The notes: generated from the sequence alone by a model not told the origin. DNA of 64,000 nucleotides from a virus (IMGVR_UViG_3300037225_000856:48404-112403), one strand, 5' to 3'. Counted from the first letter of the stretch, positions 21,638 through 56,897 are shown. A program made the numbers and translations.

Positions 21638-21675
21638 TATTGACAGCGATGATGGTACATTATAAACTTTTAATA

Positions 21676-21684
21676 GTATTTATA
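21676..21684 (+). promoter_or_regulatory. Putative late promoter GTATTTATA
   Basis: 16 nt before ATG 21701. Confidence 0.65.
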
Positions 21685-21700
21685 AGAAAAATATGTACTC

Positions 21701-22351
21701 ATGAAAATAAAAAAAATACAATTATTTGAAATTATCGATTCAAATGGTGAACTGATTGGAAAGAATGACGTACCTTCAACCGGTGCTGATTTAGAATCAG
21801 GAGCAAACAATACTACAGACTATAACTCAAAAATTGGTCAACAACCATTCAGATACGACATGTTAGGAAGATTTGGGTTCACTTTACTTCCTTTCTTCGA
21901 AGGTAAAGAAGATCAGAGTCAAAAAGAATTATTAAAAGATTTAGCACAACTCATGCACGATAAGCACATAGATACTTTACAATATTATTATAAAAATCCT
22001 AATCTCCTAAAGTCTGATTATAGAAAACATTCAGCAGGCGAAGAACATTCAGAACAGTGTGAAAAAGAAGATATTGCATGGGCAAGAAAAATCATCAAAG
22101 CCGTTGAACCACATTTTGAAAAAGCATTTAAAGAACCAATTGATGAAGTTGATTCTATAAATGAAGAAAAAATTGCCGAAGATAATGTAGCCGAAGATAA
22201 ACTTGTAGACAAAAGGGATGAAGATGAAATATCTCAAAAAGCTGAAGATAATGATATAAAAGACAAAAAACTTGAAAAGATTGCTGGTCTTATAAGTAAA
22301 TTAGATCAACAGGATAAAGATAAGCTCGCAAACTTGTTAGAAAGAAAATAA
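21701..22351 (+). CDS. Hypothetical acidic protein, candidate internal head protein
   Basis: 10-aa N-terminus MKIKKIQLFE; INE/IAE/VAE motifs in the acidic tail; late motif upstream. Confidence 0.55.
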   Translation: MKIKKIQLFEIIDSNGELIGKNDVPSTGADLESGANNTTDYNSKIGQQPFRYDMLGRFGFTLLPFFEGKEDQSQKELLKDLAQLMHDKHIDTLQYYYKNPNLLKSDYRKHSAGEEHSEQCEKEDIAWARKIIKAVEPHFEKAFKEPIDEVDSINEEKIAEDNVAEDKLVDKRDEDEISQKAEDNDIKDKKLEKIAGLISKLDQQDKDKLANLLERK

Positions 22352-22366
22352 AAATTTAAAAAGTTT

Positions 22367-22397
22367 ATTGCAAATCTACATAAAATTTATATCTTTG
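22367..22397 (+). promoter_or_regulatory. Bacteroidota-type promoter (ATTG-N19-TATCTTTG)
   Basis: Immediately upstream of the endonuclease at 22405. Confidence 0.6.
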
Positions 22398-22404
22398 TAT
22401 AAAA

Positions 22405-24108
22405 ATGAAAAGTGATTTTTCAAAATTTCTTAATGGTGGCTATAAAGGAATATCTCAAATAAGAAATAAATTTCCTAATGAATATAATAACATTATAAAA
22501 TTCAATCAAAATTTTGGAGATATTCATTGGGGGCAAAAACTATATAATTATGTTAATAATTTAATTTTATTGCCCACATGTAAATGTGGAAATAGTGTTA
22601 AATTTTATAAATTTAACAAGGGATATGCCATATATTGTTCGAGTAAATGCAGATATGAAGATACTGAATTAAAATTAAAAATAAAACAATCGTTTTTAGC
22701 AAAATATGGCGTTGAAAATCCTTTACAATCTCCAGAAGTGCAAAAAAAACGAAAAGCATTGTTTTTTGAAAAACACGGAGTTGAACATCAATCACAATTA
22801 GCAGAGGTAAAAGAAAAAAGGAAACAAACAAATCTTGAAAGATTTGGCACGACAACAAATTTATTGTGCGAAGATACTAAAAAGAAAATAAAGATTACAA
22901 ATTTAAAGAAATTTGGTGTTGAACATAATTCACAATGTGAAGAAATTAAAGAAAAAAAGAAACAAACAAGTTTAAAAAATTGTGGTTTTGAATATAATTT
23001 TCAATCATCTGAATTTAGAAAACTTTCTAAAGTGTCAAACAATGAAAAATATTTAAAAAAAATATCGGAATTATTAAAATGTAATGTAAATGATATAAGC
23101 GTCAATGACAATATAATTACAGTTAAAAAATATTGTGAAAAACACGATTCATTTGAAATTACAAAACAAAATTTATATAGTCGATTTATCACATATAAAC
23201 AAATAAATTTTTGTACTAAATGTTATCCCATAAATGATAATATTTCAATAAAAGAAAAAGAATTAAAAAATTTTATTGACGAATTAATAATTAATAACAT
23301 AAAAAATTCTAAAAAAATAATTAATCCACAAGAAATCGACATCTATATACCTGAATATAAATTAGGTATTGAACTTGATGGTTTATATTGGCATAACGAT
23401 ATTGCAAAAGATAAAAATTATCATTTAAATAAAACTGAAGAATGTGAAAAACAGGGAATTCAACTATTACATATTTTTGAAGATGAATGGATTTATAAAA
23501 AAGAAATTGTAAAAAGTATTATTAAGTCTAAGTTAAATCTAATTGAAAATAAAATATTTGGAAGAAAATGCATCATTAAAGAAATTGATAACATATTAAG
23601 TTCTGATTTTTTAAAAACTAATCATATACAAGGATTTGTTGGAAGTAAAATTAAACTGGGTTTATTTTATAATAACGAACTAGTTTCAATAATGACTTTC
23701 GGTAAAAAAAGAATTAGTATGGGCAATAAACAACCAACAGATGAAGAATATGAAATGTTAAGATTTTGTAATAAGCTCAATACAAGCGTTATTGGTGGAG
23801 CAAGTAAATTATTGAGTTATTTTATAAAGAACTATCAACCAAAATTTATTTTAACTTTCGCAGATCGTAGATATTCAAATGGTAACCTGTATGAAAAATT
23901 AGGATTTAAGTTTATTGGTAACAGCAGACCTAATTATTGGTATTTTAAACAAAATGAATTAATCAGATATCATCGCTTTAACTTTAGAAAAGATAAATTA
24001 GTTAAAGAAGGTTATGATTTAAATAAAACTGAACATCAAATTATGGCAGAAAGAGAGTATTTATCTATACATGATTGTGGTAACATGAAATTTGAAATGA
24101 AATTTTAG
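22405..24108 (+). CDS. Putative homing endonuclease (KYGVE repeats, IELDGLYWH nuclease, Hef-like C-terminal region)
   Basis: CKCG...YCSSKC; KYGVENP repeats; EIDIYIPEYKLGIELDGLYWH; LLHIFEDEW; GGASKL...ADRRYS. Confidence 0.8.
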   Translation: MKSDFSKFLNGGYKGISQIRNKFPNEYNNIIKFNQNFGDIHWGQKLYNYVNNLILLPTCKCGNSVKFYKFNKGYAIYCSSKCRYEDTELKLKIKQSFLAKYGVENPLQSPEVQKKRKALFFEKHGVEHQSQLAEVKEKRKQTNLERFGTTTNLLCEDTKKKIKITNLKKFGVEHNSQCEEIKEKKKQTSLKNCGFEYNFQSSEFRKLSKVSNNEKYLKKISELLKCNVNDISVNDNIITVKKYCEKHDSFEITKQNLYSRFITYKQINFCTKCYPINDNISIKEKELKNFIDELIINNIKNSKKIINPQEIDIYIPEYKLGIELDGLYWHNDIAKDKNYHLNKTEECEKQGIQLLHIFEDEWIYKKEIVKSIIKSKLNLIENKIFGRKCIIKEIDNILSSDFLKTNHIQGFVGSKIKLGLFYNNELVSIMTFGKKRISMGNKQPTDEEYEMLRFCNKLNTSVIGGASKLLSYFIKNYQPKFILTFADRRYSNGNLYEKLGFKFIGNSRPNYWYFKQNELIRYHRFNFRKDKLVKEGYDLNKTEHQIMAEREYLSIHDCGNMKFEMKF

Positions 24109-24130
24109 ATTAAAGAAAATAAAAGAAGTA

Positions 24131-24901
24131 ATGGCAAACCAAGAATTATATGATAAGACGTATTCTGTGCCCCCAGATGTGTTAAATAGTATTCAAGCAG
24201 CACTTATATCCAATCCGAACAATAGTGGTACAAAACGAGCTAAATTCATAATTAGAAATGGCGCATTAACTTATCAAGCAATGAAAAGATTGAAGAATTT
24301 TTTTGATTATTTTAATTCGCAGACTGGAGATAAAATGCAATATGTTCTTGCTGGCGGAAATGCAATGAAACAATTTATTGAAAGAACTTTAGCAAGCGAC
24401 AGGGTAGGTGTTGAACAATCGAAAAAAGTAAAACAAATGTATAATGTTGACCCGATGTTAGGAACAAAGCCAGCACAGACACCACAATTAAATGAAGATA
24501 AAAAAGAATTGAAAAAGAATGCAGTTGCTGTTATTGTTGACAATGATAATAAAATATTGTTACTTAAAAGAGGGAATAAAGTACTTTGGATGCCTTCAAA
24601 ATGGGGATTGGTTGGTGGTGGGATTGAGAAAAATGAAACACCTAAACAAGCAATTGAAAGAGAAATAACAGAAGAAACAGGATTGGAAATAAAAAAATTT
24701 ATTAAATCATTTAGTATTCAAAGAAATCCAGATAGTATTGAACATATATTTGTTTGTCGATATGATGGTGACCCAACCGATATAAAACTAAATGAAGAAA
24801 ATACAAATTATGGTTGGTATGATGTTGATGAAATGAATTTCTTGGATATTGTGCCAAACCTGATTGAATATATAAATTTAGTTTTCACAAAATATGATTA
24901 A
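24131..24901 (+). CDS. Two-domain protein with C-terminal Nudix hydrolase
   Basis: Canonical Nudix box GGGIEKNETPKQAIEREITEETGL; QLNE linker precedes the domain. Confidence 0.85.
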   Translation: MANQELYDKTYSVPPDVLNSIQAALISNPNNSGTKRAKFIIRNGALTYQAMKRLKNFFDYFNSQTGDKMQYVLAGGNAMKQFIERTLASDRVGVEQSKKVKQMYNVDPMLGTKPAQTPQLNEDKKELKKNAVAVIVDNDNKILLLKRGNKVLWMPSKWGLVGGGIEKNETPKQAIEREITEETGLEIKKFIKSFSIQRNPDSIEHIFVCRYDGDPTDIKLNEENTNYGWYDVDEMNFLDIVPNLIEYINLVFTKYD

Positions 24902-24904
24902 ATT

Positions 24905-24913
24905 GTATTTATA
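24905..24913 (+). promoter_or_regulatory. Putative late promoter GTATTTATA
   Basis: Upstream of 24945. Confidence 0.6.
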
Positions 24914-24944
24914 GTAAATAATTGAATAAATAAAAAATAAAAAA

Positions 24945-25184
24945 ATGAGCAAATTAGAAGGAGTTAGTTTACAATTTGAAACTTGTAGCATTGCAAAAAA
25001 TCGTTACACATGTAATGATCAATATAATACTGGCAACCCAGATGCATTATCTGATGGTGACGTACAAGGCAAAGGTGAATTGAACGGTAGTATTGGTAGT
25101 TGTGATGATATTAAGGACAGAACTTGTGAACTTACAAAAAATATATATCAGCAGGGTACTCAATATACTGCAACTACAGCATAA
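24945..25184 (+). CDS. Small hypothetical protein
   Basis: PDALSDGD..GKG motif; late motif upstream; coupled to the next gene. Confidence 0.6.
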   Translation: MSKLEGVSLQFETCSIAKNRYTCNDQYNTGNPDALSDGDVQGKGELNGSIGSCDDIKDRTCELTKNIYQQGTQYTATTA

Positions 25185-26086
25185 TGATTAATGAGTTAGA
25201 AATACTATTTAATAACGTCAAGCATTTCCGTCAATTATTAACAGAAGGCGTTAGTGATAAGGTTATTGTCGATGCCATTAATCAACATAAATTTCTTTAT
25301 ATTTATTATAAAGGGGAAAATACGATTGAAACTGGCTATCGAACAATAAGACCTTTTGTATTAGGCGTAAACACAAGCGGTAATTTAGCACTTAGAGCAT
25401 GGCAGGACAAAGGTAGAAGTGATAGCCTTAGATCAGATTCTCCAAGAAATAGATTACATCATGAACATGAAGTAGATACGGATGGATTGACAAAACCGGG
25501 TTGGCGATTGTTTCTTGTTAACAATATAACTTCTGCAATACCAACAGGTAAAAGATTTATTGATGCTCAAGGAAATGTTGAAATACCAACAGGATATAAA
25601 GAAAATGATAAAGATATGACAGGTGGTATAATTGCATCTGTTACATCTGGCGGTAAAATACCTGTGGGCGGTATACCAACAACAAGACAAAAATTGCCGA
25701 GATGGGACAAATATAAAAACGCAGATAAAAATAACCGACAAATTACAAAAGCAGATGTTCTTGGATTAAATGATATTGCCAAAAGAGTTATGAAAAAACC
25801 CATCACGGATTTTTTTGTTGCAATTGATAATAAAAACAATTTTAATTTACAGGATGTAAGAACTAAACTTAATTTTCCACAAAATGCATATGTGGATGAT
25901 TTAAGTAATTTATATAATAGGCTTGTTATGAAAACACCTGTGAATAAAACAGCACAAGATCAGTTTGCAAAAAACCAAAAAGATAAAATGGTAAAAGGTC
26001 TTGCCGAAAAGCAAACTCCACAAAATCCGTCAATATTTAAAGAAAATGAAAATAATCCTATTGTTAAGAAGACTTTTTTCAAATAA
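25184..26086 (+). CDS. WYL-domain protein
   Basis: IYYKG...RTIRPFVLG...LRAW...GWRLFLVNNI is the WYL pattern. Confidence 0.75.
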   Translation: MINELEILFNNVKHFRQLLTEGVSDKVIVDAINQHKFLYIYYKGENTIETGYRTIRPFVLGVNTSGNLALRAWQDKGRSDSLRSDSPRNRLHHEHEVDTDGLTKPGWRLFLVNNITSAIPTGKRFIDAQGNVEIPTGYKENDKDMTGGIIASVTSGGKIPVGGIPTTRQKLPRWDKYKNADKNNRQITKADVLGLNDIAKRVMKKPITDFFVAIDNKNNFNLQDVRTKLNFPQNAYVDDLSNLYNRLVMKTPVNKTAQDQFAKNQKDKMVKGLAEKQTPQNPSIFKENENNPIVKKTFFK

Positions 26087-26090
26087 TAGA

Positions 26091-26099
26091 GTATTTATA
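26091..26099 (+). promoter_or_regulatory. Putative late promoter GTATTTATA
   Basis: Upstream of 26122. Confidence 0.65.
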
Positions 26100-26121
26100 A
26101 AAAAATATAAAATTTTATAAA

Positions 26122-26808
26122 ATGGCAAAACCAGATTTAAATAAACTTAGAACCGAGATAGATAATCGCAAAAGAGAAAGAAACATATCATCATCACCAT
26201 TAGGTGAAAGTACAGGTGCTAATATTGCACCAAGGGATGCTTTTTTATATGAATTGATTAGGTCACACGATACTGGCGTTGAAACACCTGCAACTGATTT
26301 AATTAAATTAGTTGAAAATCAAGTCGCAATTAAAAATAAAGAAACGGTACGACACAATATTAATGAAACTGCTGTTGTTGACAGAGTACCAGCACGTCTT
26401 CCTGTTCAAAACAATAAGCCAGTTGAAATGTCACCTGAAAGAGACGAGCAATTATTCACTGATCTTCAAAATAAAAACAAACAAACATTAGCTGACTCAA
26501 TTGCACCGTATATTGCTGGTGGTCAGAAAAAGAATCTTAATCCAACTGGTGGTGCAGTATCACCAATGAATTTAAATGAAGGTTATTTGGTTGAAAACGT
26601 AAAAAAGATTGTTAATAACTACTTGATTGATATTGATAATTTCGGTCCCGTTGTCGAAGAAGCAATTAAGGGTACAATTATTGAAATGTATGCTGCTGAA
26701 CGAATAAAAGAAGTGCTTACTGAGAACAAAGAAATGATTAGGGGACTTATAATTGATGTCATTAAAGAGATTTCAGACAGAAATAAAGCAAAAAAAGCGC
26801 AATTGTAA
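26122..26808 (+). CDS. Hypothetical protein, candidate head/scaffold-associated
   Basis: Late motif upstream; LGE/LVE/INE/LNE motifs in low-complexity linkers. Confidence 0.5.
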   Translation: MAKPDLNKLRTEIDNRKRERNISSSPLGESTGANIAPRDAFLYELIRSHDTGVETPATDLIKLVENQVAIKNKETVRHNINETAVVDRVPARLPVQNNKPVEMSPERDEQLFTDLQNKNKQTLADSIAPYIAGGQKKNLNPTGGAVSPMNLNEGYLVENVKKIVNNYLIDIDNFGPVVEEAIKGTIIEMYAAERIKEVLTENKEMIRGLIIDVIKEISDRNKAKKAQL

Positions 26809-26821
26809 TTGCGCTTTTTTT
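26791..26821 (+). terminator. Rho-independent terminator (possibly bidirectional)
   Basis: AAAAAAGCGCAATT-GT-AATTGCGCTTTTTT perfect inverted repeat. Confidence 0.85.
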
Positions 26822-26845
26822 CGCAATTTTTTTACAGCTAAGTTT

Positions 26846-26854
26846 GTATTTATA
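26846..26854 (+). promoter_or_regulatory. Putative late promoter GTATTTATA
   Basis: Upstream of 26878, just after the terminator. Confidence 0.65.
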
Positions 26855-26877
26855 AATATACTACAAATAGTTACAGC

Positions 26878-29517: not shown

Positions 29518-30368
29518 ATAAAAATACTTGGACTAATAATGAAATAATATTATTAAAAAATAATTTTGCAATAAAAACAAATGAGGAATTAATTAGTTTA
29601 TTTTCAAATAGAACAATTATGTCAATTAAAGTTAAAGCAAAACGACTTAAATTAAGAAAAAATAAAGAAACTGAATTTAGAAATAGAAGTATTGCTCATC
29701 TGGGAGAAAAAAATTCAATGTGGGGTAAAATATCTAAAATACATGGAAAAAATTATGATGATTATTATGGTAGTGAAAAATCAAAAGAAATAAAAACTAA
29801 ATTATCAAAAGATAAGATTGAAAAACATAAAAATGGTGTATTAAATACTTCTGGTATTAATAATGGTATGTTTGGTAAAATATCACCAAATAGAGGAATA
29901 ACAATGGTAATTGAACAAAGAAAAAAAATATCTGATGCAAAAAAAGTATATTGGAATAATTTATCGGATAAAAGAAAAAATGAATTAAATTTAATTAGAA
30001 TTAATAATATTTATAAAAACAAAATAATTGATACTAAACCTGAAATTATTATTGAAAATTATCTTAAAGAAATTAATGTTTATTATAGAAAAAAAGAAAT
30101 TGTCGGATATTATAATTGTGATTTTATGATTAATGATAAATTAATTATTGAAGTGCAAGGAGATTATTGGCATGCAAATCCAATTAAATATTTAAATAAA
30201 AAATTAACATTAGCACAACAAAATAACATACATAGAGATAAAAGAAAGTTTACTTATTTAAGTAATCGTAATTATAAAATATTATATTTGTGGGAAAATG
30301 ATATATATCGAAATTTGAACATTTGTAAAAATCAAATAAATAATTTAATATATGGGAAAACTGAATGA
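29514..30368 (+). CDS. Putative homing endonuclease (NUMOD3-like + Vsr/DUF559-like nuclease)
   Basis: GEKNSMWGK and NGMFGK repeats; TKPE...CDF...IIEVQGDYWH...YLWE. Confidence 0.8.
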   Translation: MNKNTWTNNEIILLKNNFAIKTNEELISLFSNRTIMSIKVKAKRLKLRKNKETEFRNRSIAHLGEKNSMWGKISKIHGKNYDDYYGSEKSKEIKTKLSKDKIEKHKNGVLNTSGINNGMFGKISPNRGITMVIEQRKKISDAKKVYWNNLSDKRKNELNLIRINNIYKNKIIDTKPEIIIENYLKEINVYYRKKEIVGYYNCDFMINDKLIIEVQGDYWHANPIKYLNKKLTLAQQNNIHRDKRKFTYLSNRNYKILYLWENDIYRNLNICKNQINNLIYGKTE

Positions 30369-33300
30369 TTTTATATTAATATTAAAGCAAAAACCTTTTA
30401 TTAAATCACTAATAAATGATTTAAAATCAGATGTTTATGTAGTTGGTGGAGTTGTGCGTGATCTTATACTTAATAAACCCAATAAAGATATTGATTTGGT
30501 GGTTGGAAAAGTACCAATAGACAAATTAGTTGCACATTTACAAAAATTTGGTAAGGTAGATGTTGTGGGTAAATCATTTGGAGTCATTAAATTCATTGAT
30601 AATGAGGGTATTGATTATGATATTGCTTTACCGAGACGAGAAACTAAAAACAGTGAGGGTGGATATCGTGGATTTGATGTACAAAGTGATGAAAATCTTC
30701 CAATTGAAGACGAATTAATTAGAAGGGACGCTAAGATGAATGCTATGGCTATTAATATTAATACAAATAAATTTATTGACCCATTGGGAGGATTAGAAGA
30801 TATAAAAAATAAACAAATATCTGCAGCAAATCCAGAGGCGTTTTCAGATGACCCATTAAGAGCTATAAGATTCTGTTCATTTGCTTCACGTTTTGGATTT
30901 ACTATTGACCCAGACACAATGAAAATGATTCAAAAAAATGCTGGGAGAGTAAAAGAAATAGCACCAGAGAGAATTTTGACAGAATTTGATAAAATTGTCA
31001 AAAAGGGAAACAAACTATTGGCTGCAACACTACTTGATGAAACTGGTTTGCTTAAAGAAATATTTGGTAGAGGACTATATTATGATTTCAGAAATACAAA
31101 AGAACCCTTTGATAAAGTAAAAACAATGAGTGAATTTATTTATTTGTTAAGTAAAAATCTTGTTAATGACCCTGCAGAGTTTTACAAAAATAATCTTAAA
31201 GGTGATGAAAATACATACAGAGAAATAAAAGCACTTCAAATAGCATATGATAGCGGTGAAGCAACCAATTTAATTGAAGCAAGATCAATTGCACATAATA
31301 TGTACGTGATATCTCCAATATCATTACAAAGTCAGATATTGCCAAATGTAATTAAAACTGCTGCACAAGAATTATTTGAAGGCAAGTATCCCAAAACTGT
31401 TAATGAATTGGCAGTAAATGGTAATGATTTAATGGAACTTGGTTTACAAGGTAAAGTAATTGGTGATATGCAAAAATCATTATTATTAAAGATTTATTCA
31501 AATAAAATTAGGAATAATAAAGAAGAATTGCTAAATTTGGCGGGTCAAAATAAACCAATGATTAAAGAAGAAGTTAGCGAAAGAATTGAATATGGAGCAT
31601 TGTTATTATTTCTCGATATTCCAATTTGGAATAAAATTACATCAATAATCAATAAAGAAGATTTATATGATGAAGAAGGTTATGGTATTGAATCTGACCC
31701 ACATGTTACAATATTATATGGTTTCCATGATGAAGTTACTGCTGAAGAAGTGTTTGATTTATATAAATTAAATATACCATTAAAACCAATTGAAATACGT
31801 ATTAAAGGTATTAATATTTTTGAAACTTTTAAATTTGACGTAGTAAAATTTGATGTCGAATCCGATATACTTAAAAAAGCACATGAGATAATGAAAGATT
31901 TGCCAAATACTGAAGATTTCCCTGATTATCATCCGCATATAACAATTGCATGTGTAAAAAAAGGTGAGGGCAAAAAATATACTAAACCATTTGAAAAAGA
32001 AATAATATTAAAAGGTAATAAATTAATATATTCTACTAAAGGTCAAAGAGGTGATGCTGGCGAAAAACTAATGCTTGAAGGTGTTGCTGATAGATATGCG
32101 GAGAAAACATTCAACATACCCGACCCAAATACTCAGAATGATGTACAGGCAATGGGAGATATACAAAAAAGTGTTGAAGAACCTATTGGTTATGTTACAC
32201 CTTACTCCTCAAATGATTCAGCTAAAGAAGTACCAATATATTTAAATCCAAAGTCATTAACTAATTTTGCTGATAATGTCAGGGTAATTGTAAATGATAA
32301 AGGAGATTTATATATTGCACAGGAAGATGGCAGATTTAATCATGGCATGATGGCAAAGGCATTAGGTTTATTTGCTTCTGATAATGGAATATATAATGAT
32401 ATGGATGAATATCAATTATTGCATAGAGTAGACAACACTAATGCATTTGGGTTAGGCGATACTGCTGAAGATTATATTGAAAGAAAATATGAAAATAGAG
32501 TATATTTATTAAACATATTACGTCAGGCAAAAAGAAAAAATCCACAATATGATTTTTATAATGAATATTATGCGAATATAAAAGGTGAACCAGTAAGTCT
32601 TAATGAATTTGCTTATCCTGAAATAAGACCAGAAGAAAAAAATACTTGGAATATAAATGGAGAAAATGTTGATATTAAGTTTTTTGTTGAAAAATATGAC
32701 ATATGGAATCAGGGTGGATATGCAGACCCTTCAGAAGCATCTGTGTTAGAATTTCTTCAAAATAATTATGAAGATTTCATTCATGACGAGAAACTTAAAA
32801 AAGAATTACTTGTGGCTTTAACTGATAGAAATGTATTAGATGAAACGGTTTTAAATGAAATGTCAATTCAGACAATAGATTATACCGATATTATTACTCC
32901 AGAATATATTAAAGAAGTAGAAATGAGTGATAATTATGAAAGATATATTGAATATTATCAGTATGAAGAAAATATGGTTCATGTTGACAAAGAAGAAATT
33001 GAAAAAACTGAAAATTTTAAAAAATGGTTCAGATATGAATTAAGTGTCAGATATGAGGATGTTGTTGATAATATAACAAATAAAATAAAACCTGATGGTA
33101 CTATTGATATTTGGAGAAGAATAAAAGTTGATGATATTTGGGTTAATCATCTTTTACAAGCGGGAAAACATTTGGGTATTTATTGGTCATGGGATGAACG
33201 TGCTGCAGAAGCACATTGGGGTGATACAGCAAAAAACAGTAATGCATTAATAAAATCTTCAATAAATGAAAAATATATTGATTGGAAAAATACAATATAT

Positions 33301-33462
33301 GCAAACATGGATTTAAGTCTTGGTGAAGATGAAAAAGAAATAAGATTGTTTAAAAATACATCATTAAAAATTGAAGAATTAAATATTGATGGTCAAAATG
33401 TTGAAGATATTATGGGAAGCGATTATGAATTACAATTAAGAAATAAAACATTTTATGCGTAA
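30352..33462 (+). CDS. Polyvalent protein: class II CCA-adding/poly(A) nucleotidyltransferase + Acb1-like 2H phosphoesterase + unknown domains + R-S-E ADP-ribosyltransferase-like domain
   Basis: VGGVVRD..KDIDL, RRD..MNAMA, DPLGG..D, FSDDPLRAIR, ERILTEF; PHVTILYG and YHPHITIA (two HxT motifs); IWR...GIYWSWD...EDEKEIRL. Confidence 0.8.
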   Translation: MGKLNDFILILKQKPFIKSLINDLKSDVYVVGGVVRDLILNKPNKDIDLVVGKVPIDKLVAHLQKFGKVDVVGKSFGVIKFIDNEGIDYDIALPRRETKNSEGGYRGFDVQSDENLPIEDELIRRDAKMNAMAININTNKFIDPLGGLEDIKNKQISAANPEAFSDDPLRAIRFCSFASRFGFTIDPDTMKMIQKNAGRVKEIAPERILTEFDKIVKKGNKLLAATLLDETGLLKEIFGRGLYYDFRNTKEPFDKVKTMSEFIYLLSKNLVNDPAEFYKNNLKGDENTYREIKALQIAYDSGEATNLIEARSIAHNMYVISPISLQSQILPNVIKTAAQELFEGKYPKTVNELAVNGNDLMELGLQGKVIGDMQKSLLLKIYSNKIRNNKEELLNLAGQNKPMIKEEVSERIEYGALLLFLDIPIWNKITSIINKEDLYDEEGYGIESDPHVTILYGFHDEVTAEEVFDLYKLNIPLKPIEIRIKGINIFETFKFDVVKFDVESDILKKAHEIMKDLPNTEDFPDYHPHITIACVKKGEGKKYTKPFEKEIILKGNKLIYSTKGQRGDAGEKLMLEGVADRYAEKTFNIPDPNTQNDVQAMGDIQKSVEEPIGYVTPYSSNDSAKEVPIYLNPKSLTNFADNVRVIVNDKGDLYIAQEDGRFNHGMMAKALGLFASDNGIYNDMDEYQLLHRVDNTNAFGLGDTAEDYIERKYENRVYLLNILRQAKRKNPQYDFYNEYYANIKGEPVSLNEFAYPEIRPEEKNTWNINGENVDIKFFVEKYDIWNQGGYADPSEASVLEFLQNNYEDFIHDEKLKKELLVALTDRNVLDETVLNEMSIQTIDYTDIITPEYIKEVEMSDNYERYIEYYQYEENMVHVDKEEIEKTENFKKWFRYELSVRYEDVVDNITNKIKPDGTIDIWRRIKVDDIWVNHLLQAGKHLGIYWSWDERAAEAHWGDTAKNSNALIKSSINEKYIDWKNTIYANMDLSLGEDEKEIRLFKNTSLKIEELNIDGQNVEDIMGSDYELQLRNKTFYA

Positions 33463-34111
33463 AGAAAAATTACTTAAAGAGCAACAGCGAAATAAATTAC
33501 TTGAAGATTCTGGTGTCAATCTGGTTCAGGGTGCAAATTTAATATCAGTTGATATACAGCCAGAATATGAAAGTTATATTACGTTTAATTTGGATTCATT
33601 CATAATGTTTTTAAATAAAAATATTAATGTTATAAATTCATTAACTTTCTTGTACAATGGTCAGGATACTTTGGGAATGGTAAATGAAGCAGGATATAGA
33701 GATTGGTTATATGAAAATGGATTACAAGAAGAAGTTTTGGATTCAGCCAGATTTTATGATAAAGGATATGCGTTTTTCAGATATTGCATGGATGAAGGTA
33801 TTGAAGAAGAAGAAACTGTAAATTTGGTAAAATACATGATTCAAAACAACATTAATGACAGTAGGGACATTGATGAAGAAATGTGGAATGGTTTTATGCA
33901 AGAATATGGATATGATTCAAGTGCTGTTAGAGATTTACTTGAATCAGCAGCAGATATGATAAATATTCCAGATTTAATGGATTATTTAAGAAGATTTGGT
34001 GGAAAATTAGTAATATGCGGTGGTGGTATTAATGAATGTTTTAAAGAAGTTGAAATTGCATTAACAGCATTGGGAAAAAATTATAATGTCTTAACAAAAT
34101 TTACTTATTAA
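33455..34111 (+). CDS. Isochorismatase/nicotinamidase-like cysteine hydrolase
   Basis: LISVDIQ (Asp), FYDKG (Lys), ICGGGINEC (Cys) give the D-K-C triad in the expected order. Confidence 0.6.
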   Translation: MRKEKLLKEQQRNKLLEDSGVNLVQGANLISVDIQPEYESYITFNLDSFIMFLNKNINVINSLTFLYNGQDTLGMVNEAGYRDWLYENGLQEEVLDSARFYDKGYAFFRYCMDEGIEEEETVNLVKYMIQNNINDSRDIDEEMWNGFMQEYGYDSSAVRDLLESAADMINIPDLMDYLRRFGGKLVICGGGINECFKEVEIALTALGKNYNVLTKFTY

Positions 34112-34160
34112 TTTTATTATTATATAAGTGTGAGTTACTAAATCCTATAAAGTATTTATT

Positions 34161-34337
34161 ATGAAAAGCAAAGACAAAACAAGAACAGTTACACCAATGG
34201 ATGTAGCCAAATTTTTAGGTGTTGAAAAAGAATATAAAGAAGTTCTTTTTGAACAAGAACTGAAAGAAAATCATGATATTATTATGAGTAATAATATCGA
34301 AGAAAATAATACTATTAGAAAAGATAACAATAAATGA
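34161..34337 (+). CDS. 58-aa mini-protein duplicating the C-terminal module of the downstream gene
   Basis: MKSKDKTRTVTPMDVAKFLGVEKEYKEVLFEQELKEN...; ATGA overlap with 34334; alternative start at 34197; GTATTTATT at 34152. Confidence 0.55.
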   Translation: MKSKDKTRTVTPMDVAKFLGVEKEYKEVLFEQELKENHDIIMSNNIEENNTIRKDNNK

Positions 34338-35893
34338 AAGCATTAAATGAAGCATTTGTTATAAGCAAAAGAACAGATCAGAAGGGTAATTATATTGCAT
34401 ATATTGACCCGAATAAGCCAGAAAACAAAGAAACTTTTAAATACAAAGACATATTTAAGAATCATGGTGCTAAATGGAATAATGATTATAAATTTTGGTT
34501 TTGGTATATAGGCAAAACAAAAGATCAATGGCAAAACGTTTACAGTCATTTCATTGAACCAGCATTAAAAGAAGTACATGCATTAGAAGGTGCTCCAGAA
34601 GAAGAAAGTGCTGCAGCATTAATATCATCACTGGATGCTCTTTTGTCAGAAATTAGTGCAACACCAACCACTACAAATCCAGAAAATGACGCTGAACTTA
34701 CGCCTGACGAAAAAAGAGCACTTATTGATAAATTAGGAAAGTTTAAAGAAACTTTGGTCAATATTGATAGCGATGAAGAATTTAAAAAAACAATGCAAAT
34801 TATTTTATCTTTTAAAAATTCTCAAGGACATTCATATAGTTTCATGAATAGCATATTGATTATGATTCAAAATCCTAATGCAAGTTTAGTAAAAAGCGAA
34901 ATCAACTGGAATAGATTTAATAGAAGTGTTGTTGATAAGAAAAATAGAATGATTATACGTTCTCCGAGTAAGAGAGCAATGAGACCATATTCTAAAATTG
35001 AAAAAGAAAAAATTACTGGAGAATTTTTAAAGTCAGTTGGTAAAAATACCTATAATGAATTGGGTCCGGGTGAACGTGAACGTCTTGGCGTTCAACTTCG
35101 TGGAGCGTTTAGTGGTCATGATTTTGACTATACGTTTGTATATGATGTTTCGAATACTCAACAAATGGAAGGCAAAGAAAATTTCTTGGGTGATTATGAA
35201 AAACGTAAAGAGATTAAATGGTTTGAAGAAAACATGATAAGTGAAGAAATCAGACCAATATATAAATCATTGCTTGATTTTGCTCAAGAAAACGGAGTTA
35301 AAATAGAATTGGTTGATGAATTGGATGGTGCAAGAGGTGTTAGTCATAATGGTATGATTCAAATTTTAAAAAACGAAGGCAATGATGTTGGTTTAACAAA
35401 AACATTGGCACATGAAATTGCACATGAATTATTACATCAAAGTTATATGAAAAATAAGAATTCAAAATATTCACAATATTTTGTAGGTAAAGCTGAAGGC
35501 AGAGATGCTGTTGAACAACAAGCTGAATTGACAGCATGGATGGTATTAGGCTCATTTAATTTTGACTTGAAAACAACTTCCTTAAATTATGCAGCAATGT
35601 GGGGTGCTGATAAAGATGCTATGATTCGTGTATTTGATACAGTATCTGGTGTTGTCAGTATGTTGGTGGATTATATTAGCAGGAAAATTAAAAATAATGC
35701 AAACAATGCTGTACCACAAAATAACACAAATGCAGCTACACCACAAAATGAAACGCTTGACAATACATCAAGAACAGTTACTCCAATGGACGTAGCAAGA
35801 TTTATTGGTGTTGAAAAAGAGTACCAAGATGTTTTAAATAAAAATAAAAGCGAACTGGTAGAAAATTTCTACAGTTTATTAAAAAAATTATGA
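34334..35893 (+). CDS. ArdC-N-like ssDNA-binding domain + ImmA/IrrE-like metallopeptidase (polyvalent anti-restriction type)
   Basis: GAKWN...W N-terminal domain; YSFMNSILIMIQNPNA...W; VYDVSNT; TLAHEIAHELLH...EQQAE. Confidence 0.75.
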   Translation: MKALNEAFVISKRTDQKGNYIAYIDPNKPENKETFKYKDIFKNHGAKWNNDYKFWFWYIGKTKDQWQNVYSHFIEPALKEVHALEGAPEEESAAALISSLDALLSEISATPTTTNPENDAELTPDEKRALIDKLGKFKETLVNIDSDEEFKKTMQIILSFKNSQGHSYSFMNSILIMIQNPNASLVKSEINWNRFNRSVVDKKNRMIIRSPSKRAMRPYSKIEKEKITGEFLKSVGKNTYNELGPGERERLGVQLRGAFSGHDFDYTFVYDVSNTQQMEGKENFLGDYEKRKEIKWFEENMISEEIRPIYKSLLDFAQENGVKIELVDELDGARGVSHNGMIQILKNEGNDVGLTKTLAHEIAHELLHQSYMKNKNSKYSQYFVGKAEGRDAVEQQAELTAWMVLGSFNFDLKTTSLNYAAMWGADKDAMIRVFDTVSGVVSMLVDYISRKIKNNANNAVPQNNTNAATPQNETLDNTSRTVTPMDVARFIGVEKEYQDVLNKNKSELVENFYSLLKKL

Positions 35894-36276
35894 GTAATAT
35901 ATCATATAGTGCAGTTGTACTTGACGAACAATCAAGAGAAAGATTAATCAACAGGTTTAAATCAATAATTCCAGAAGGATTTGAAATTATTGCGCATCAT
36001 ATGACTGTTAATTTGGGTGAAATTGACCCTGAATATGAAAAGTATCTTGGCTTAGCTGTACGTTTAACTGTTAATGATATTGCTATGGATGATAAAGTAA
36101 TTGCAGTTGGCGTATCATCAGGAATTAATAGTCATAATACCAAAGCACATATAACATTGGCAGTAAATAAGGCAAATGGTGGCAAACCAGTGATGTCAAA
36201 TTATCTAACTAATTGGGAGAAATTACGCAGACCATTATTATTAAGAGGAAAAATAACTCAAGTAGAATTTAAATAA
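35890..36276 (+). CDS. 2H phosphoesterase (RNA-repair cyclic phosphodiesterase type)
   Basis: AHHMT and AHITLA HxT motifs; GKPVMSN. Confidence 0.75.
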   Translation: MSNISYSAVVLDEQSRERLINRFKSIIPEGFEIIAHHMTVNLGEIDPEYEKYLGLAVRLTVNDIAMDDKVIAVGVSSGINSHNTKAHITLAVNKANGGKPVMSNYLTNWEKLRRPLLLRGKITQVEFK

Positions 36277-36277
36277 A

Positions 36278-37189
36278 ATGATAACAAGACTATGTGCATT
36301 TGATTTTGATAGTACTCTTATAGATTCTCCCCAAAAAGAAAGTGGAAAAATTCAATGGTCAGAGAAAATGGGAAAGCCACATCCATATCAAGGCTGGTGG
36401 GGTAGACCAGAAAGTCTTGATTTAAATGTTTTTAATATTAAACCATTTCCTAAAATATTGAATCTTTTAAATAAAGATGTTTCAACACCAGCTACATATA
36501 CAATTATATTGACTTCAAGACAGGAAAAATTACGTCCTTTAGTTCAGGAAGTATTGGATGTTAATAATATTCATATTGATAAACTCGATATGCAATGTGA
36601 TCAAAGAACTAAAGGTCAAAAAATTCTTGATTATACAAAGAAATTTCCAGACCTGAGAGAAATTAATGTTTACGATGACAAAGATAGTGATATTATATCA
36701 TACGAAGGAATAAGAAATTCATTACCTGAAGATATAAAATTTAATATTTATCTTGCTAATCAAGGTAGTTTAACTTTAGTTGAAGCAGAAAGTAAACTTA
36801 TATCAATTATTAAAGAAGAAGTTCAAAATTTTGTTCCTGATAATAACTATGTATATCATGGTACATATGATGGTGCTGGTTACTACATACAGCGTACAGG
36901 TAGTATGAAGATTAATGCAGCAAATAATAATGAACCTTTTATTTCATTTACCAGCAAACCAAATGTTGCAAAATATTATGCAGATATGAAAGGCGGGTCA
37001 GCCAGAGGTATTGTACTTAGAACAAAAAAGACTGCAGACTTTACACCATCACTTAAATATAAAAAAAATGAAGGATATGAATGGGTAACAACCAGAGAAA
37101 TACCAGTAGATGAATTAGAAATTAACACAAAATACGGTTGGATTCCATTGAATAATTGGGATTTTATCGATAAAGAAATAAAAAAATAA
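36278..37189 (+). CDS. HAD phosphatase (RNA-repair 'Swiss-army-knife' type) fused to an ART-like domain
   Basis: FDFDSTL, WWGRPESL, LTSR, TKG, YDD; then IIKEE linker and VYHGT...ISFTS...AKYYA...EW. Confidence 0.75.
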   Translation: MITRLCAFDFDSTLIDSPQKESGKIQWSEKMGKPHPYQGWWGRPESLDLNVFNIKPFPKILNLLNKDVSTPATYTIILTSRQEKLRPLVQEVLDVNNIHIDKLDMQCDQRTKGQKILDYTKKFPDLREINVYDDKDSDIISYEGIRNSLPEDIKFNIYLANQGSLTLVEAESKLISIIKEEVQNFVPDNNYVYHGTYDGAGYYIQRTGSMKINAANNNEPFISFTSKPNVAKYYADMKGGSARGIVLRTKKTADFTPSLKYKKNEGYEWVTTREIPVDELEINTKYGWIPLNNWDFIDKEIKK

Positions 37190-37196
37190 GATTACT

Positions 37197-37205
37197 GTAT
37201 TTATA
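37197..37205 (+). promoter_or_regulatory. Putative late promoter GTATTTATA
   Basis: 14 nt before ATG 37220. Confidence 0.65.
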
Positions 37206-37219
37206 GTAAAATTATTCTA

Positions 37220-38041
37220 ATGATTGATATGCGTTATAAGCCAAGATTTCTTCCACAAATGAGTGCACCATTTGAAATTGTGTTAAAACAACTCGATGAA
37301 GAAGGTGTGGATTATGAACTAATCGAAGCAGACCCAAATGATTTGGAGGCATCACAAGGAGTTACATTTTCTGATGAAGTTGAAAAATGTGAACTCAATG
37401 ATAATAATCCTATTTGGATAGCTGGTGAAAATAAAGTTTGTGACGGTCATCACAGAATGGTAAAAGCCTTACTTGATGGTGTATCGATTAAAGCAGTAAA
37501 ACTTGGTTTAAACGAAAAAGATGCTTGCAGAGTTTTAAATAAAATAGAGGATATTTATGAATATCAGCAAAAACGTGGATTAGAAGAAGTTGAAATGCAA
37601 GATACAATTAATTATTATGGTGGTGATGAAAATCAATTTTTAAATACTCTGGAAGAAGATAATTTTAATATTGAAACTCCATCAGGAGAAACAAAAACAA
37701 ATCAAAAGACAATTACTGCATATCGAAAAGAACCTATAAAAGAAAATTCGGCTGTAGGAAATTTCTTTTCATTAAAACCTATTGAGGGATTTAGTAAATA
37801 TGAAATTGATTTTGACAATCTTTTGGACTTACATTCTTTGGGTGTCACATATAAAGACGGACAAGAACCTGCCGATATTCTGGCAAAAATTTGGTTTCCA
37901 CACATAAATTTTGAAAAATTAAGTGAACAATATGGCATGCCTTCAGTTAATCTTAAGAATAAAGCAATTACAGAAAAAGCAATGAGTTTAGGCTATGATG
38001 GCATTAAACTTGATGATAAATTAATACAAGGATTAAAATAA
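37220..38041 (+). CDS. ParB/Srx-like domain protein with degenerate ART-PolyVal-like C-terminus
   Basis: L.ASQ...PIWI...VCDGHHR; C-terminal AYR...FFS...LGYDGI. Confidence 0.6.
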   Translation: MIDMRYKPRFLPQMSAPFEIVLKQLDEEGVDYELIEADPNDLEASQGVTFSDEVEKCELNDNNPIWIAGENKVCDGHHRMVKALLDGVSIKAVKLGLNEKDACRVLNKIEDIYEYQQKRGLEEVEMQDTINYYGGDENQFLNTLEEDNFNIETPSGETKTNQKTITAYRKEPIKENSAVGNFFSLKPIEGFSKYEIDFDNLLDLHSLGVTYKDGQEPADILAKIWFPHINFEKLSEQYGMPSVNLKNKAITEKAMSLGYDGIKLDDKLIQGLK

Positions 38042-38050
38042 AATAAAGCT

Positions 38051-38395
38051 ATGAATACATACAGAATTACAAACCTAACAAATACCGCAGGAAAGCGTGA
38101 TTTTAAATTCAATTCTTCATTAGATATTGAATACGTTGATAATATGATCAAGAAAACGGTTAGCGTAAAACCCGGGGCAAGTCTCTATTTGACAGTACCT
38201 TCTTTACCCATGTCAGTACATAAATTAAGAGCAAAAAACTTAATTAGTGTTGTTGAGGTAAGTGCAAAAGAATTGGCAGATTCTATAAATAATGCTAAAC
38301 CAAAACCAGCACCTGTGGCAGTAAAAGAAGTTGTAACTGAAGAGGTTACCAGTGAAGAAACTGCAAAAAAATCAAATAAAAGGAAAAAAGAATAA
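38051..38395 (+). CDS. Hypothetical protein
   Basis: ORF in the operon, followed by a terminator. Confidence 0.6.
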   Translation: MNTYRITNLTNTAGKRDFKFNSSLDIEYVDNMIKKTVSVKPGASLYLTVPSLPMSVHKLRAKNLISVVEVSAKELADSINNAKPKPAPVAVKEVVTEEVTSEETAKKSNKRKKE

Positions 38396-38431
38396 CAAAT
38401 AGTTTCTCTGATTATTTAATTAAAATTTAAT

Positions 38432-38461
38432 AATGCCAGCATTTTGTTGGCATTTATTTTT
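38432..38461 (+). terminator. Rho-independent terminator
   Basis: AATGCCAGCA-TTT-TGTTGGCATT followed by T-rich tract. Confidence 0.7.
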
Positions 38462-38547
38462 AAAATCTCTTTCATCTTTGATGATTTTCAGTTATTTTTA
38501 CGTATTTATAATAAATTACATTATTTTATAATAATTTATAAACAAGT

Positions 38548-56834: not shown

Positions 56835-56877
56835 TATATTTGCATAATTATTAATATTAATATTTAAAGTATTTATA
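56835..56877 (+). promoter_or_regulatory. Tandem host-type (-7 TATATTTG) and late (GTATTTATA) promoter elements upstream of tnpB
   Basis: TATATTTG at 56835-56842 (weak -33); GTATTTATA at 56869-56877. Confidence 0.5.
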
Positions 56878-56897
56878 ATTGTATATAGACACAATTA

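Follow-up and report, generated by a model that had tools for sequence, protein, structure and literature searches.

Module joints of a polyvalent protein carry a prohead-protease-type motif in a late-type gene block of a huge uncultured phage

A gene block of a huge, uncultured phage with a T4-type head has as its core a polyvalent protein whose modules are separated by joints that structure prediction models as short disordered linkers with a conserved [L/I]-x-E. Because these joints carry the motif of a head-maturation protease in genes that stand behind a late-type promoter, the modules are, to judge from sequence, probably taken up into the capsid, separated by cleavage and then injected. 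The window analysed here, a 64,000-nt stretch of viral DNA (IMGVR_UViG_3300037225_000856:48404-112403), comes from a 112-kb fragment that covers about 37% of the genome of an AT-rich, Bacteroidota-type phage of ~360 kb; no cultured member of the lineage was found in the phage collection. All window genes described below lie on the + strand, and in the motifs given a slash follows the Glu of a site.

Results

Gene block and promoter motif

The ~17-kb block proposed in the initial annotation is real: 15 co-oriented ORFs occupy 21701-38395 as a late-type gene set of about five units, each with an upstream GTATTTAT[AT], and are flanked by PolB (17870-21637) on one side and by glycosyltransferase and baseplate genes, the latter carried by the 112-kb record itself, on the other. 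The late promoter motif claimed for the block genes was likewise borne out by its counts, spacing and positional conservation. The 112-kb record holds 37 copies on the + strand versus 4 on the - strand, and about 20 copies sit 23-46 nt upstream of an ATG. In G001, a complete relative whose proteins in common with the window are mostly about 50-88% identical, 67 of 91 copies fall in non-coding DNA (11% of the genome), the spacing peaks 22-23 nt upstream of starts, and the genes behind the motif include the portal, terminase, scaffold and baseplate genes together with orthologues of the block. As many as 12 of the 12 related contigs keep the motif positions before the block units, and all 12 do so for the copy GTATTTATA (21676..21684), which lies 25 nt upstream of the first gene. 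The same motif also precedes the helicase-PolB operon, a TnpB gene and endonuclease genes, and it is therefore no proof of a virion fate.

Architecture of the polyvalent protein

The core of the block is a polyvalent protein as described by Iyer et al. 2017 (PMC5512222), consisting of a kinase-like N-terminal module, variable modules, a CCA-adding enzyme and a 2H phosphoesterase. G001 encodes it as a single ORF of 2247 aa, and single-ORF versions of 2021, 1971, 1954 and 1700 aa occur elsewhere; in the window, a homing-endonuclease gene encoding a 284-aa Vsr/DUF559-type protein (29514..30368; Pfam) divides it at a module joint into halves of 879 aa (26878..29517) and 1036 aa (30352..33462). This gene is absent from all five single-ORF relatives, and other contigs have unrelated endonuclease genes at this joint.

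The 879-aa half comprises the kinase-like module (residues 1-~320), modelled by AF2 at a pLDDT of ~90 with Foldseek matches to kinase/APH structures at a probability of 0.97-1.0, and further modules, with joints at LGE (nt 27850-27858), MLDE (28372-28383), PLKE (28507-28518), DLNE (28942-28953), VNEMLNE (29443-29463) and ININE (29479-29493). More than 100 homologues of the protein bearing this N-terminal module have variable downstream domains. The 1036-aa half consists of a class II CCA-adding enzyme (residues 1-405), a 2H phosphoesterase (410-577), an unassigned module (596-750), a small module (763-826) and a C-terminal module (837-1036), with joints at MIKE (nt 31558-31569), MLE (32071-32079), SLNE (32596-32607) and VLDE..VLNE (32833-32859). 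Its CCA-adding module matches PolyA_pol (79.8 bits) and PolyA_pol_RNAbd (52.4 bits) in Pfam and aligns with 1miv at Z 25.5 and an rmsd of 4.0 over 373 residues (VIA-align). The 2H module, of the LigT/Acb1-like kind, matches Acb1 (31.5 bits) and 2_5_RNA_ligase2 (28.4 bits), aligns with 2H enzymes including phage Acb1 7t27 at Z 11-13 over about residues 410-577, and has HVT at ~451, with HIT in the family consensus.

Kinase-like, CCA-adding and 2H modules thus share one ORF in G001 and two in the window, in a phage whose relative G001 encodes a T4-type portal and a terminase. Of the domains that define the polyvalent class, the kinase-like fold is present in the N-terminal module and ART-PolyVal in homologues that share this module (101.7, 46.5 and 45.1 bits); modules of relatives also include GNAT, NleE-like and ParB-like (ParBc) domains. 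Searches of the giant protein and its homologues revealed no peptidase domain.

The motif at module joints

The initial annotation placed [LIVM]xE at inter-module junctions, and comparison among relatives shows this to be well beyond chance. In a set of 13 genomes, restricted to well-supported homology breakpoints (n=69), the motif lay within 3 aa of 50 breakpoints vs 12.4 expected (4.0x), and the same breakpoints gave 1.07x for xD, 1.4x for xK and 1.5x for xN. Among 109 metagenomic homologues, a set that overlaps the first, it lay within 2 aa of 227 of 475 breakpoints vs 63.8 expected (3.6x; xD 0.86x). Enrichment was 3.2x for [LI]xE vs 1.55x with other residues at P3. The excess at joints is specific to Glu, although part of the signal is linker composition, because Glu alone is 1.7x enriched at breakpoints; within the single 1036-aa protein, [LIVM]xD was mildly enriched in linkers too (4/23, p 0.06). 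Breakpoints between G000 and G001 carried the motif in 7 of 9 cases inside the block (1.6 expected) and, as a negative control, in 1 of 20 outside it (0.5 expected). By eye, about 14 of about 16 joint classes have the motif.

Some ORFs terminate exactly at the site (...TDRELLNE, ...TDRNILDE), and a stand-alone module retains a 17-aa leader ending FLNE/FAYPE. The residues at P3 and P2 vary at joints, so conservation is at the protein level rather than the DNA level; column-wise conservation of joint versus interior sites was 0.72 v 0.51 in one half of the protein and 0.54 v 0.58 in the other. AF2 modelling of the 1036-aa protein gave its longest inter-domain runs of pLDDT<50 at residues 401-413, 577-595, 752-762 and 826-833. 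Each of these four runs, which separate confidently modelled domains, holds a [LIVM]xE site, and the 2H domain lies between the sites at 406 and 576; three shorter low-pLDDT stretches fall within the C-terminal module.

Neighbouring proteins

The neighbouring Nudix, 2H and HAD proteins obey the same modular logic. In the 256-aa protein (24131..24901), an N-terminal domain with no assigned function is followed by QLNE (nt 24485-24496), a K-rich linker and a Nudix domain (residues 130-243; Pfam NUDIX, 69.5 bits); all 10 orthologues retain L-[NTS]-E at the joint, where one relative carries an insert of 30 aa. The 128-aa stand-alone 2H phosphoesterase (35890..36276; Pfam tRNA_lig_CPD) has as its counterpart in other phages the last (C-terminal) module of the polyvalent protein, fused after ...LLDE/ or ...VLNE/ in L013, L005 and L011. 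The 303-aa protein (36278..37189) joins a HAD domain of RNA-repair type (Pfam HAD_SAK_1) through IIKEE (nt 36806-36820) to an ART-like module (ART-PolyVal, sub-threshold at E 0.029); seven orthologues terminate 4-6 residues past the joint, and one gains a third (DGYHR) module after NINEE.

Four further proteins are notable for their sites. The block opens with a 216-aa acidic protein (21701..22351) whose first 10 residues form a leader with LFE (nt 21722-21730) at its end; the pattern M-x-x-K-K-x-x-[LI]-x-E/IID is retained in 11 orthologues while the remaining leader residues vary, and IDE and INE (nt 22139-22165) stand where relatives have a ~70-aa insertion. The 300-aa protein, which forms a unit with a 79-aa protein (24945..26086; motif at 24905 upstream), has ...FRQLLTE/G at nt 25238-25246, and 10 orthologues, down to 32% identity, keep L[LI]xE with G or A as the next residue. 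The 228-aa protein (26122..26808), behind its own promoter motif at 26091, is dense in [LIVM]xE (12 sites vs 5.5 expected, z 3.3), with about 10 sites conserved; no sequence similarity to the scaffold was found, and we regard it as a candidate prohead-core or scaffold-like substrate. The 218-aa protein (33455..34111) begins MRKEKLLKE..KLLE and also has an excess of the motif (z 2.9), with just 4 close orthologues available for comparison.

The other genes are of a different kind. The 567-aa protein (22405..24108; DUF7487, REase_MTES_1575 and Mom-like by Pfam) has no orthologue that we found in G001, and its gene is probably a mobile insertion rather than cargo. Three genes of the block are mobile endonuclease-type insertions, and the view of the whole block as cargo is not supported. 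The 519-aa accessory protein (34334..35893) gives a weak zincin-metallopeptidase signal (phrog_87 at E 1.8e-6; sub-threshold matches to MPTase-PolyVal (E 0.1), M78 and DUF6782) and is encoded in few relatives, being missing from G001, G002, G003 and most others. The last unit (37197..38395; motif at 37197) encodes proteins of 273 and 114 aa with no Pfam family and no conserved leader. Among the domains named at the outset, Nudix, CCA-NTase, the two 2H and HAD hold up in Pfam and the kinase as a kinase-like fold, the ART-like and ArdC-type peptidase domains amount to sub-threshold hints in the window, and the ParB-like DGYHR module occurs in relatives.

N-terminal leaders

The N-terminal strings quoted in the initial annotation as capsid-targeting leaders are all present, but hydrophobic-x-E is not commoner there in the block (5/15 proteins) than elsewhere (25/89). 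In G001, it occurs in 28% of genes behind the promoter motif vs 26% of others, and this base rate of 26-28% for N-terminal [LI]xE leaves no enrichment in late-motif genes. A leader is conserved only in the 216-aa and 300-aa proteins, and a general targeting leader is not supported. None was seen in the HAD, Nudix, 114-aa or split CCA proteins, and the N-terminal LDE of the giant protein is LDQ, LPQ or LGD in many homologues. The CCA half is a protein of its own in 7 of 13 contigs, where it begins MGKLNDF or MSKI... without leader or site, so an N-terminal targeting signal cannot explain its packaging.

Head module and genome-wide ranking

A gp21-like protease, anticipated elsewhere in the genome of this phage, was seen only in its relative G001, where an S77 protease above the Pfam cut-off (67.9 bits; His90 and Ser157/158 invariant in 52 homologues) belongs to a head module with a gp23-like major capsid protein (MCP; 250 bits), a T4-type portal and a terminase; the 112-kb fragment (37% complete) yielded no match to the protease. 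The MCP has FENQ...[IL][NK]E/[SAT] in 64 of 70 relatives, which we take to correspond to the ...IFENQ...FLTE/A site of T4 gp23, and the capsid protein of the lineage has INE/S at the T4-equivalent cleavage position. Near its N-terminus, the lineage's protease has an invariant ...ILIE/TD, which resembles the LIE-9 motif described in T4 gp21 (PMC9026906). These observations support the view that [LI]xE in the capsid protein, the scaffold and the protease N-terminus occupies positions at which T4 proteins undergo cleavage.

When the 355 proteins of G001 were ranked by excess of [LI]xE over shuffled sequences, the scaffold came first (z 5.0) and a 225-aa block protein, the orthologue of the window's 228-aa protein, second (z 4.5), with a 261-aa protein beside the portal in fourth place. 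The giant protein ranked 12th, vs 145th for PolB and 103rd for the helicase, which had been named in advance as composition controls. In the window's own 112-kb record, the top three of 104 proteins by motif excess all come from the block.

Discussion

We propose that the polyvalent protein and its neighbours would be made late and built into the prohead core, that after assembly a gp21-like protease would cut the chains after Glu into separate enzymes, and that these would be ejected into the host together with the DNA and act ahead of phage transcription. Candidate actions would be the repair of damaged tRNA ends, the breakdown of 2',3'-cyclic or cyclic-oligonucleotide signals and the modification of host proteins. 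We infer the cleavage, the identity of the protease, the packaging and injection and the enzyme targets, and give the explanation as a whole, based on sequence comparison, about an even chance of being correct. Membership in the polyvalent class supports the packaging reading by analogy, the class having already been predicted to be packaged and injected (PMC5512222).

The block might instead encode ordinary cytoplasmic multi-domain enzymes, made late and neither cut nor packaged, for tRNA and RNA repair and the removal of nucleotide signals at peak translation, which we consider rather unlikely. The motif would then stem from linkers of acidic, helix-capping composition or from short conserved joints at which cassettes recombine more readily, an account that suits the enrichment of Glu alone but leaves aside that the excess requires a hydrophobic P3 and is absent with Asp at P1, and that variable P3 and P2 residues point to protein-level rather than DNA-level conservation. 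T4 RNA-repair enzymes act in the cytoplasm, many block proteins lack a leader, and the promoter motif serves non-structural genes too; fission and fusion of modules, including the endonuclease-gene splits, are moreover tolerated, so that covalent linkage and N-terminal targeting are unnecessary. Against this stand the occurrence of the same motif at the MCP, scaffold and protease sites of the lineage and the scaffold and a block protein together heading the genome-wide ranking.

It is less likely still, and in our view quite improbable, that only the 216-, 228-, 300- and perhaps 218-aa proteins are processed prohead-core or internal head proteins while the giant chain and the Nudix, HAD and 2H proteins stay in the cell. 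The 10-aa and 21-aa leaders conserved solely in the 216-aa and 300-aa proteins, the rank of the 228-aa protein beside the scaffold and the leaderless CCA half of split genomes all fit this, yet it offers no reason for the conserved motif at the Nudix and HAD joints or at about 14 joint classes within the giant protein. Cutting by another peptidase, in the cytoplasm or after injection, be it a host enzyme or the 519-aa protein with its zincin-like (MPTase-type) domain, appears very unlikely: relatives without the 519-aa gene keep the joints, and the giant protein and its homologues gave no peptidase domain to set beside the weak metallopeptidase signals of the 519-aa protein. Iyer et al. 2017 (PMC5512222) favour autoproteolysis by MPTase domains, but cutting after Glu with Leu/Ile at P3 is documented for the gp21 family (PMC9026906) and is not a known habit of zincins.

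Comparison with known systems

As in the polyvalent proteins of Iyer et al. (PMC5512222), many unrelated catalytic domains share one phage polypeptide here, in architectures that vary greatly among relatives, and truncated kinase, ART-PolyVal, GNAT, 2H, Pol-beta NTase and ParB-like modules are common to both. The truncated kinase is typical of such proteins in Bacteroidetes (pro)phages, for which packaging and injection with the DNA were predicted (PMC5512222). Processing, if any, was assigned there to internal MPTase domains, whereas the joints described here carry a prohead-protease motif and no resident peptidase is conserved. The text of PMC5512222 gives no linker motif: 'linker' is absent, 'prohead' appears only in one reference title and 'CCA-adding' has 0 occurrences. 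No paper tying polyvalent proteins to prohead-protease sites was found in the literature searched.

T4 offers a precedent in Alt and IPI-III, which are packaged, then trimmed by gp21, and delivered into the host (PMC9026906). The present system resembles them in its late genes near baseplate genes, its T4-type head, the cut after Glu with Leu/Ile at P3 predicted here from sequence, and the ~10-residue N-terminal leader, here a candidate targeting signal on the 216-aa protein; Alt is also an enzyme delivered with the DNA. T4 cargo differs in consisting of single proteins that lose short terminal propeptides, whereas one chain here would give up to about ten enzymes, and most block proteins are without a recognisable leader. 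In phiKZ, 201phi2-1 and SPN3US, a diverged gp21 homologue cleaves many proteins inside the head after Glu, and these proteins enter the host on ejection (PMC9026906, PMC5694885, PMC10052503). These giant phages are of another lineage, and their processing removes propeptides rather than separating modules and has a small residue at P3. For the divided gene, the closest parallel is Aeh1 nrdA split by mobE, which we take to be a gene in pieces made by a free-standing homing endonuclease; in both cases an endonuclease gene interrupts a coding region and the two resulting ORFs are retained, but the split described here lies in a linker between modules, and endonucleases of unrelated types occur at that joint in different phages.

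Genomic setting and relatives

The record from which the window derives (bases 48404-112403 of 112,403) is rated 37% complete by CheckV, has a G+C content of approximately 29%, and carries almost every gene on one strand. The 15 ORFs of the block (21701-38395) are all co-oriented, with the genes for an SNF2 helicase and a family-B DNA polymerase (PolB; 17870-21637) upstream and glycosyltransferase-like and baseplate-wedge genes downstream. A related genome, G001 (362,763 bp, rated 100% complete), was read over its full length and is co-linear with the window, the shared proteins being mostly ~50-88% identical. Among 50,697 phage records, neither a close cultured phage (best PolB and capsid matches ≤41% identity) nor a cultured relative with a virion proteome was found. 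In IMG/VR, however, a capsid protein of this kind is encoded on at least 178 stretches, with 75-100% identity to that of G001 over 80 kept loci; over the 79 other kept loci (L043-L122, of the at least 178 matching stretches) this gp23-like protein is 75-94% identical. Given this identity and the length of many of the capsid-bearing contigs (320-365 kb), the contigs represent a large uncultured clade of huge phages with T4-like heads. At the distal end of the window (61414-63999), a single ORF that continues past the window end encodes an SbcD-like metallophosphoesterase and an SbcC-like AAA_23 domain.

Architecture of the polyvalent protein

The 879-aa and 1036-aa proteins of the block form a single 2247-aa ORF in G001, and the gene is likewise undivided in other relatives, at 2021, 1971, 1954, and 1700 aa; the 1700-aa ORF has the "stand-alone" 128-aa 2H protein fused at its end. 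The kinase-like N-terminal module leads >100 metagenomic proteins (491-1539 aa) in which the downstream parts vary (CCA enzyme, 2H, GNAT, ParBc, NleE-like methyltransferase, ART-PolyVal), which places this giant protein in the polyvalent-protein class (Iyer et al. 2017). That study described a truncated kinase among the polyvalent proteins that Bacteroidetes (pro)phages encode, and predicted that polyvalent proteins are packaged in the capsid and injected. The CCA half is a separate protein lacking a leader in 7 of 13 contigs; thus, any packaging of this half would need a route that does not rely on an N-terminal signal.

Several of the enzymes named in the initial annotation were recovered by Pfam or structure comparison: a Nudix domain (69.5 bits, Pfam), a CCA-adding enzyme of class II (1miv, Z 25.5) and, adjoining it, a 2H phosphoesterase (Z 11-13 to 2H enzymes, phage Acb1 included), a second, stand-alone 2H phosphoesterase (Pfam), and a HAD domain of the RNA-repair "Swiss Army Knife" type (Pfam). 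The kinase call is matched by a protein-kinase/APH-like predicted fold over the first ~320 residues of the 879-aa protein (pLDDT ~90), and the ART-like and ArdC-type peptidase calls found sub-threshold support only. Ten modules searched in isolation gave no credible Pfam match at E ≤ 1, and sequence searches with two ART-like modules returned no PDB matches.

A cleavage-type motif at module joints

In the comparison of architectures, homology between relatives stops at module borders, almost all of which bear hydrophobic-x-Glu. Such joints (slashes marking the border or putative cut) include REPLGE/IVY, replaced by REPLLKE/EYEINE/ in relatives with an additional module, as well as ..YMLDE/R, IKPLKE/E, WDLNE/E, VNEMLNE/A, KLMLE/G, SLNE/FAYPE, TDRxxL[ND]E/, and the joints before (..LNE-GQ/IM..) and after (PMIKE/E) the CCA module. 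Two relatives' ORFs end directly after the Glu (...ELLNE, ...NILDE), and a separately encoded module retains a 17-residue leader ending in FLNE/. Short orthologues of the HAD protein stop 4-6 residues past IIKE/E, after which the long forms carry an extra module and, following NINE/E, a third. A conserved L-[NTS]-E precedes the Nudix domain, with an insertion there in one relative, and the 216-aa protein has IDE/ and INE/ at a point of insertion.

Breakpoints, the points where homology between relatives stops, were clustered from BLAST alignments of 13 genomes, and the motif [LIVM]xE lay ≤3 residues from 50 of the 69 that were well supported (12.4 expected, 4.0x), these breakpoints being mutually non-independent and falling by eye into ~16 joint classes, ~14 of them with the motif. 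Control motifs ending in Asp, Lys, and Asn gave 1.07x, 1.4x, and 1.5x. The junction motif that the initial annotation had pointed out is therefore upheld far more strongly than one sequence alone could have told. In a set of 109 homologues, which overlaps the 13 genomes and is not independent of them, the motif lay ≤2 residues from 227 of 475 breakpoints (63.8 expected, 3.6x; Asp 0.86x). Between G000 and G001, it accompanied 7 of the 9 breakpoints in the block and 1 of 20 elsewhere.

An acidic linker composition would by itself bring Glu to the joints, and it is part of the signal: at the middle support level (≥8 partner sequences, 109 homologues), Glu alone was enriched 1.7x. The requirement for a hydrophobic P3 residue is nonetheless real, since at the same level enrichment was 2.66x for [LIVM]xE and 3.2x for [LI]xE vs 1.55x for Glu after a non-hydrophobic P3. 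Alignments of these variable-architecture proteins are unreliable near joints, which limits any column-wise comparison of conservation between joints and interiors.

As modelled by AlphaFold (mean pLDDT 80), the 1036-aa protein has its four longest stretches of pLDDT <50 between confident domains (401-413, 577-595, 752-762, and 826-833) and three shorter ones inside the C-terminal module (940-944, 953-955, and 989-997). Motif sites at 406/410, 576, 752, and 831/836 lie in or abut the four inter-domain stretches; the CCA structural match stops at ~402-405, and the 2H matches cover ~410-577. Tested on this one protein, the association is modest (5 of 23 motif sites within 6.5% of the chain length, p 0.014; for the Asp-ending control, 4 of 23, p 0.06), and the comparative breakpoint test is the stronger of the two.

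The initial annotation had also pointed to short N-terminal leaders ending in the motif. As a general rule this did not hold: leader sites occur in 5 of 15 block proteins vs 25 of 89 elsewhere in the record, and G001 genes with the promoter-like motif described below show no leader enrichment (28% vs 26%). Leader sites are kept in divergent orthologues of the 216-aa (M-x-x-K-K-x-x-[LI]-x-E/IID, Glu at residue 10) and 300-aa (L[LI]xE/[GA], Glu at ~21) proteins only; the Glu of VLDE in the 2H protein varies to D or Q, and the LDE of the giant protein is LDQ, LPQ, or LGD in many homologues.

Endonuclease genes at the joints

The 284-aa Vsr/DUF559-like endonuclease gene (29514-30368), absent from G001, lies exactly between two modules, at the joint that leads into the CCA module and is uninterrupted in another relative, G002 (...ILNNINEAKLILNNFITILKQK...). 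Endonuclease-type genes at joints of the polyvalent gene are unrelated between phages: the joint before the CCA module is occupied by a LAGLIDADG gene in one contig (L005:2342-3157) and by an unassigned 293-314-aa family in others (L015:13470-14414, L020:2370-3251, L010:9064-9999, and L016), and the joint after it by a zinc-finger/NUMOD3 gene (L019:12444-13385). Splitting at this seam is common, as many metagenomic homologues terminate in ...ININEAKxMMKII. The two halves share a reading frame in the window only; judging from ORF coordinates, the other split contigs are out of frame, and the shared frame is thus probably chance. A search for a group I intron around the 284-aa gene (21000-39000) gave no Rfam match at E ≤ 1.

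Two paralogous DUF7487/REase_MTES_1575 genes, both absent from G001, look like mobile endonuclease genes: a 403-aa gene outside the block, between the helicase and PolB genes (16313-17524), and a 567-aa gene in the block with a Mom-like C-terminal part (22405-24108). We regard the 567-aa, 284-aa, and 403-aa genes as endonuclease-type insertions and not as putative cargo.

Head module and prohead protease

No S77 protease match was found in the 112-kb fragment. In G001, the head module follows the T4 order of portal (209 bits), terminase, S77 protease (67.9 bits), scaffold (543 aa), and a capsid protein of gp23 type (250 bits). In 52 homologues of the protease, His90 and Ser157/158 do not vary; the protease also has an invariant ILIE/TD, which resembles the LIE-9 motif described in T4 gp21. 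An HK97-type protease (PF04586) was absent from the four relatives searched. The G001 capsid protein starts ...IGLLEGLEG...LFENQLSHMINE/SSDS, and FENQ followed by [IL][NK]E/[SAT] is present in 64 of 70 relatives, which corresponds to the ...LLEGEG...IFENQ...FLTE/AEIGG region of T4 gp23. The scaffold starts ...SI[IV]KE/A.

The 355 G001 proteins of ≥100 aa were ranked, blind to the block, by [LI]xE excess over composition-preserving shuffles. The scaffold ranked 1 (z 5.0), the orthologue of the block's 228-aa protein 2 (z 4.5), a 261-aa protein adjoining the portal 4 (z 3.6), and the giant protein 12 (z 2.6), with the helicase at 103 (z 0.9) and PolB at 145 (z 0.5). Among the 104 proteins of the window's record, the top three z-scores belong to the 879-aa, 228-aa, and 218-aa block proteins. 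The 228-aa protein (26122-26808) and its orthologues share ~ten conserved [LIVM]xE sites, which surround a variable segment rich in Pro and Gly; although second only to the scaffold in motif excess, the protein has no sequence similarity to it.

A promoter-like motif shared with virion genes

The motif GTATTTAT[AT] has 37 copies on the gene strand vs 4 on the opposite strand of the 112-kb record, ~20 copies lying 23-46 nt before a start codon. In G001, 67 of 91 copies fall within the non-coding 11% of the genome and the distance to ATG peaks at 22-23 nt. The genes that it precedes there encode the scaffold, portal, terminase, baseplate components, and several very large proteins, and include the block-unit orthologues. 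Its position is kept before the 216-aa (12 of 12 contigs), 228-aa (11 of 12), giant (9 of 11), and 273-aa (6 of 9) genes, and the block is thus ~five units co-regulated with virion genes. To call these units late is reasonable but not proven; the motif also precedes the helicase-PolB operon, a TnpB gene, and an HNH gene. As a candidate early class, the host-type promoter TTTG-N19-TAnnTTTG had only 10 gene-proximal matches in G001, insufficient for a temporal map.

The motif core TATTTATA, on the coding strand here (record and G001), is the reverse complement of the T4 late-promoter core TATAAATA, which may be a coincidence of an AT-rich genome. A sigma-70-family (ECF-like) factor encoded at 60702-61337 could read GTATTTAT[AT]; it has no BLASTP match at E<1e-5 among G001 ORFs, and motif reading there would need another explanation. 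The TnpB/IS605 OrfB gene (56869-58181; OrfB_IS605 and a Cas12f1-like TNB domain) has a motif copy 29 nt upstream and is absent from G001.

Discussion

A capsid-packaged, protease-cut polyprotein is the best available explanation of these patterns, unproven and in our estimation evenly poised between right and wrong. The observation of the initial annotation largely stands, above all its core, the motif at domain junctions, and its general N-terminal leader is dropped. The fuller scheme, to which we give slightly less than an even chance, is that phages of ~320-365 kb, a widespread clade, would pack the polyprotein in the capsid, where the head-maturation protease would free as many as ~ten enzymes by cutting at the [L/I]-x-E joints, all of them to be injected before gene expression. 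The freed cargo would comprise a tRNA CCA-adding enzyme, an Acb1-like phosphodiesterase, and a kinase, with ART, GNAT, NleE-like, and ParB-like modules in relatives, and the protease-site joints would double as seams for the exchange of modules and even of homing-endonuclease genes.

Prediction has it that polyvalent proteins are weapons against host defence that enter the cell by injection. For the packing, release, and activation of a ten-enzyme chain, a joint motif matching the phage's own head protease offers a concrete, testable mechanism, and it lets cargo modules and their boundaries be read from sequence. If this mechanism is true, tRNA-end repair and cyclic-nucleotide degradation would join the activities deliverable before phage gene expression, and it would be explained how modules can be exchanged or split into separate genes without functional loss. 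Our literature search found no paper linking polyvalent proteins to prohead-protease sites. Both the polyvalent-protein class and the trimming of packaged T4 proteins by gp21 are known; what is new is their combination, a chain of exchangeable enzymes with head-protease sites as its seams.
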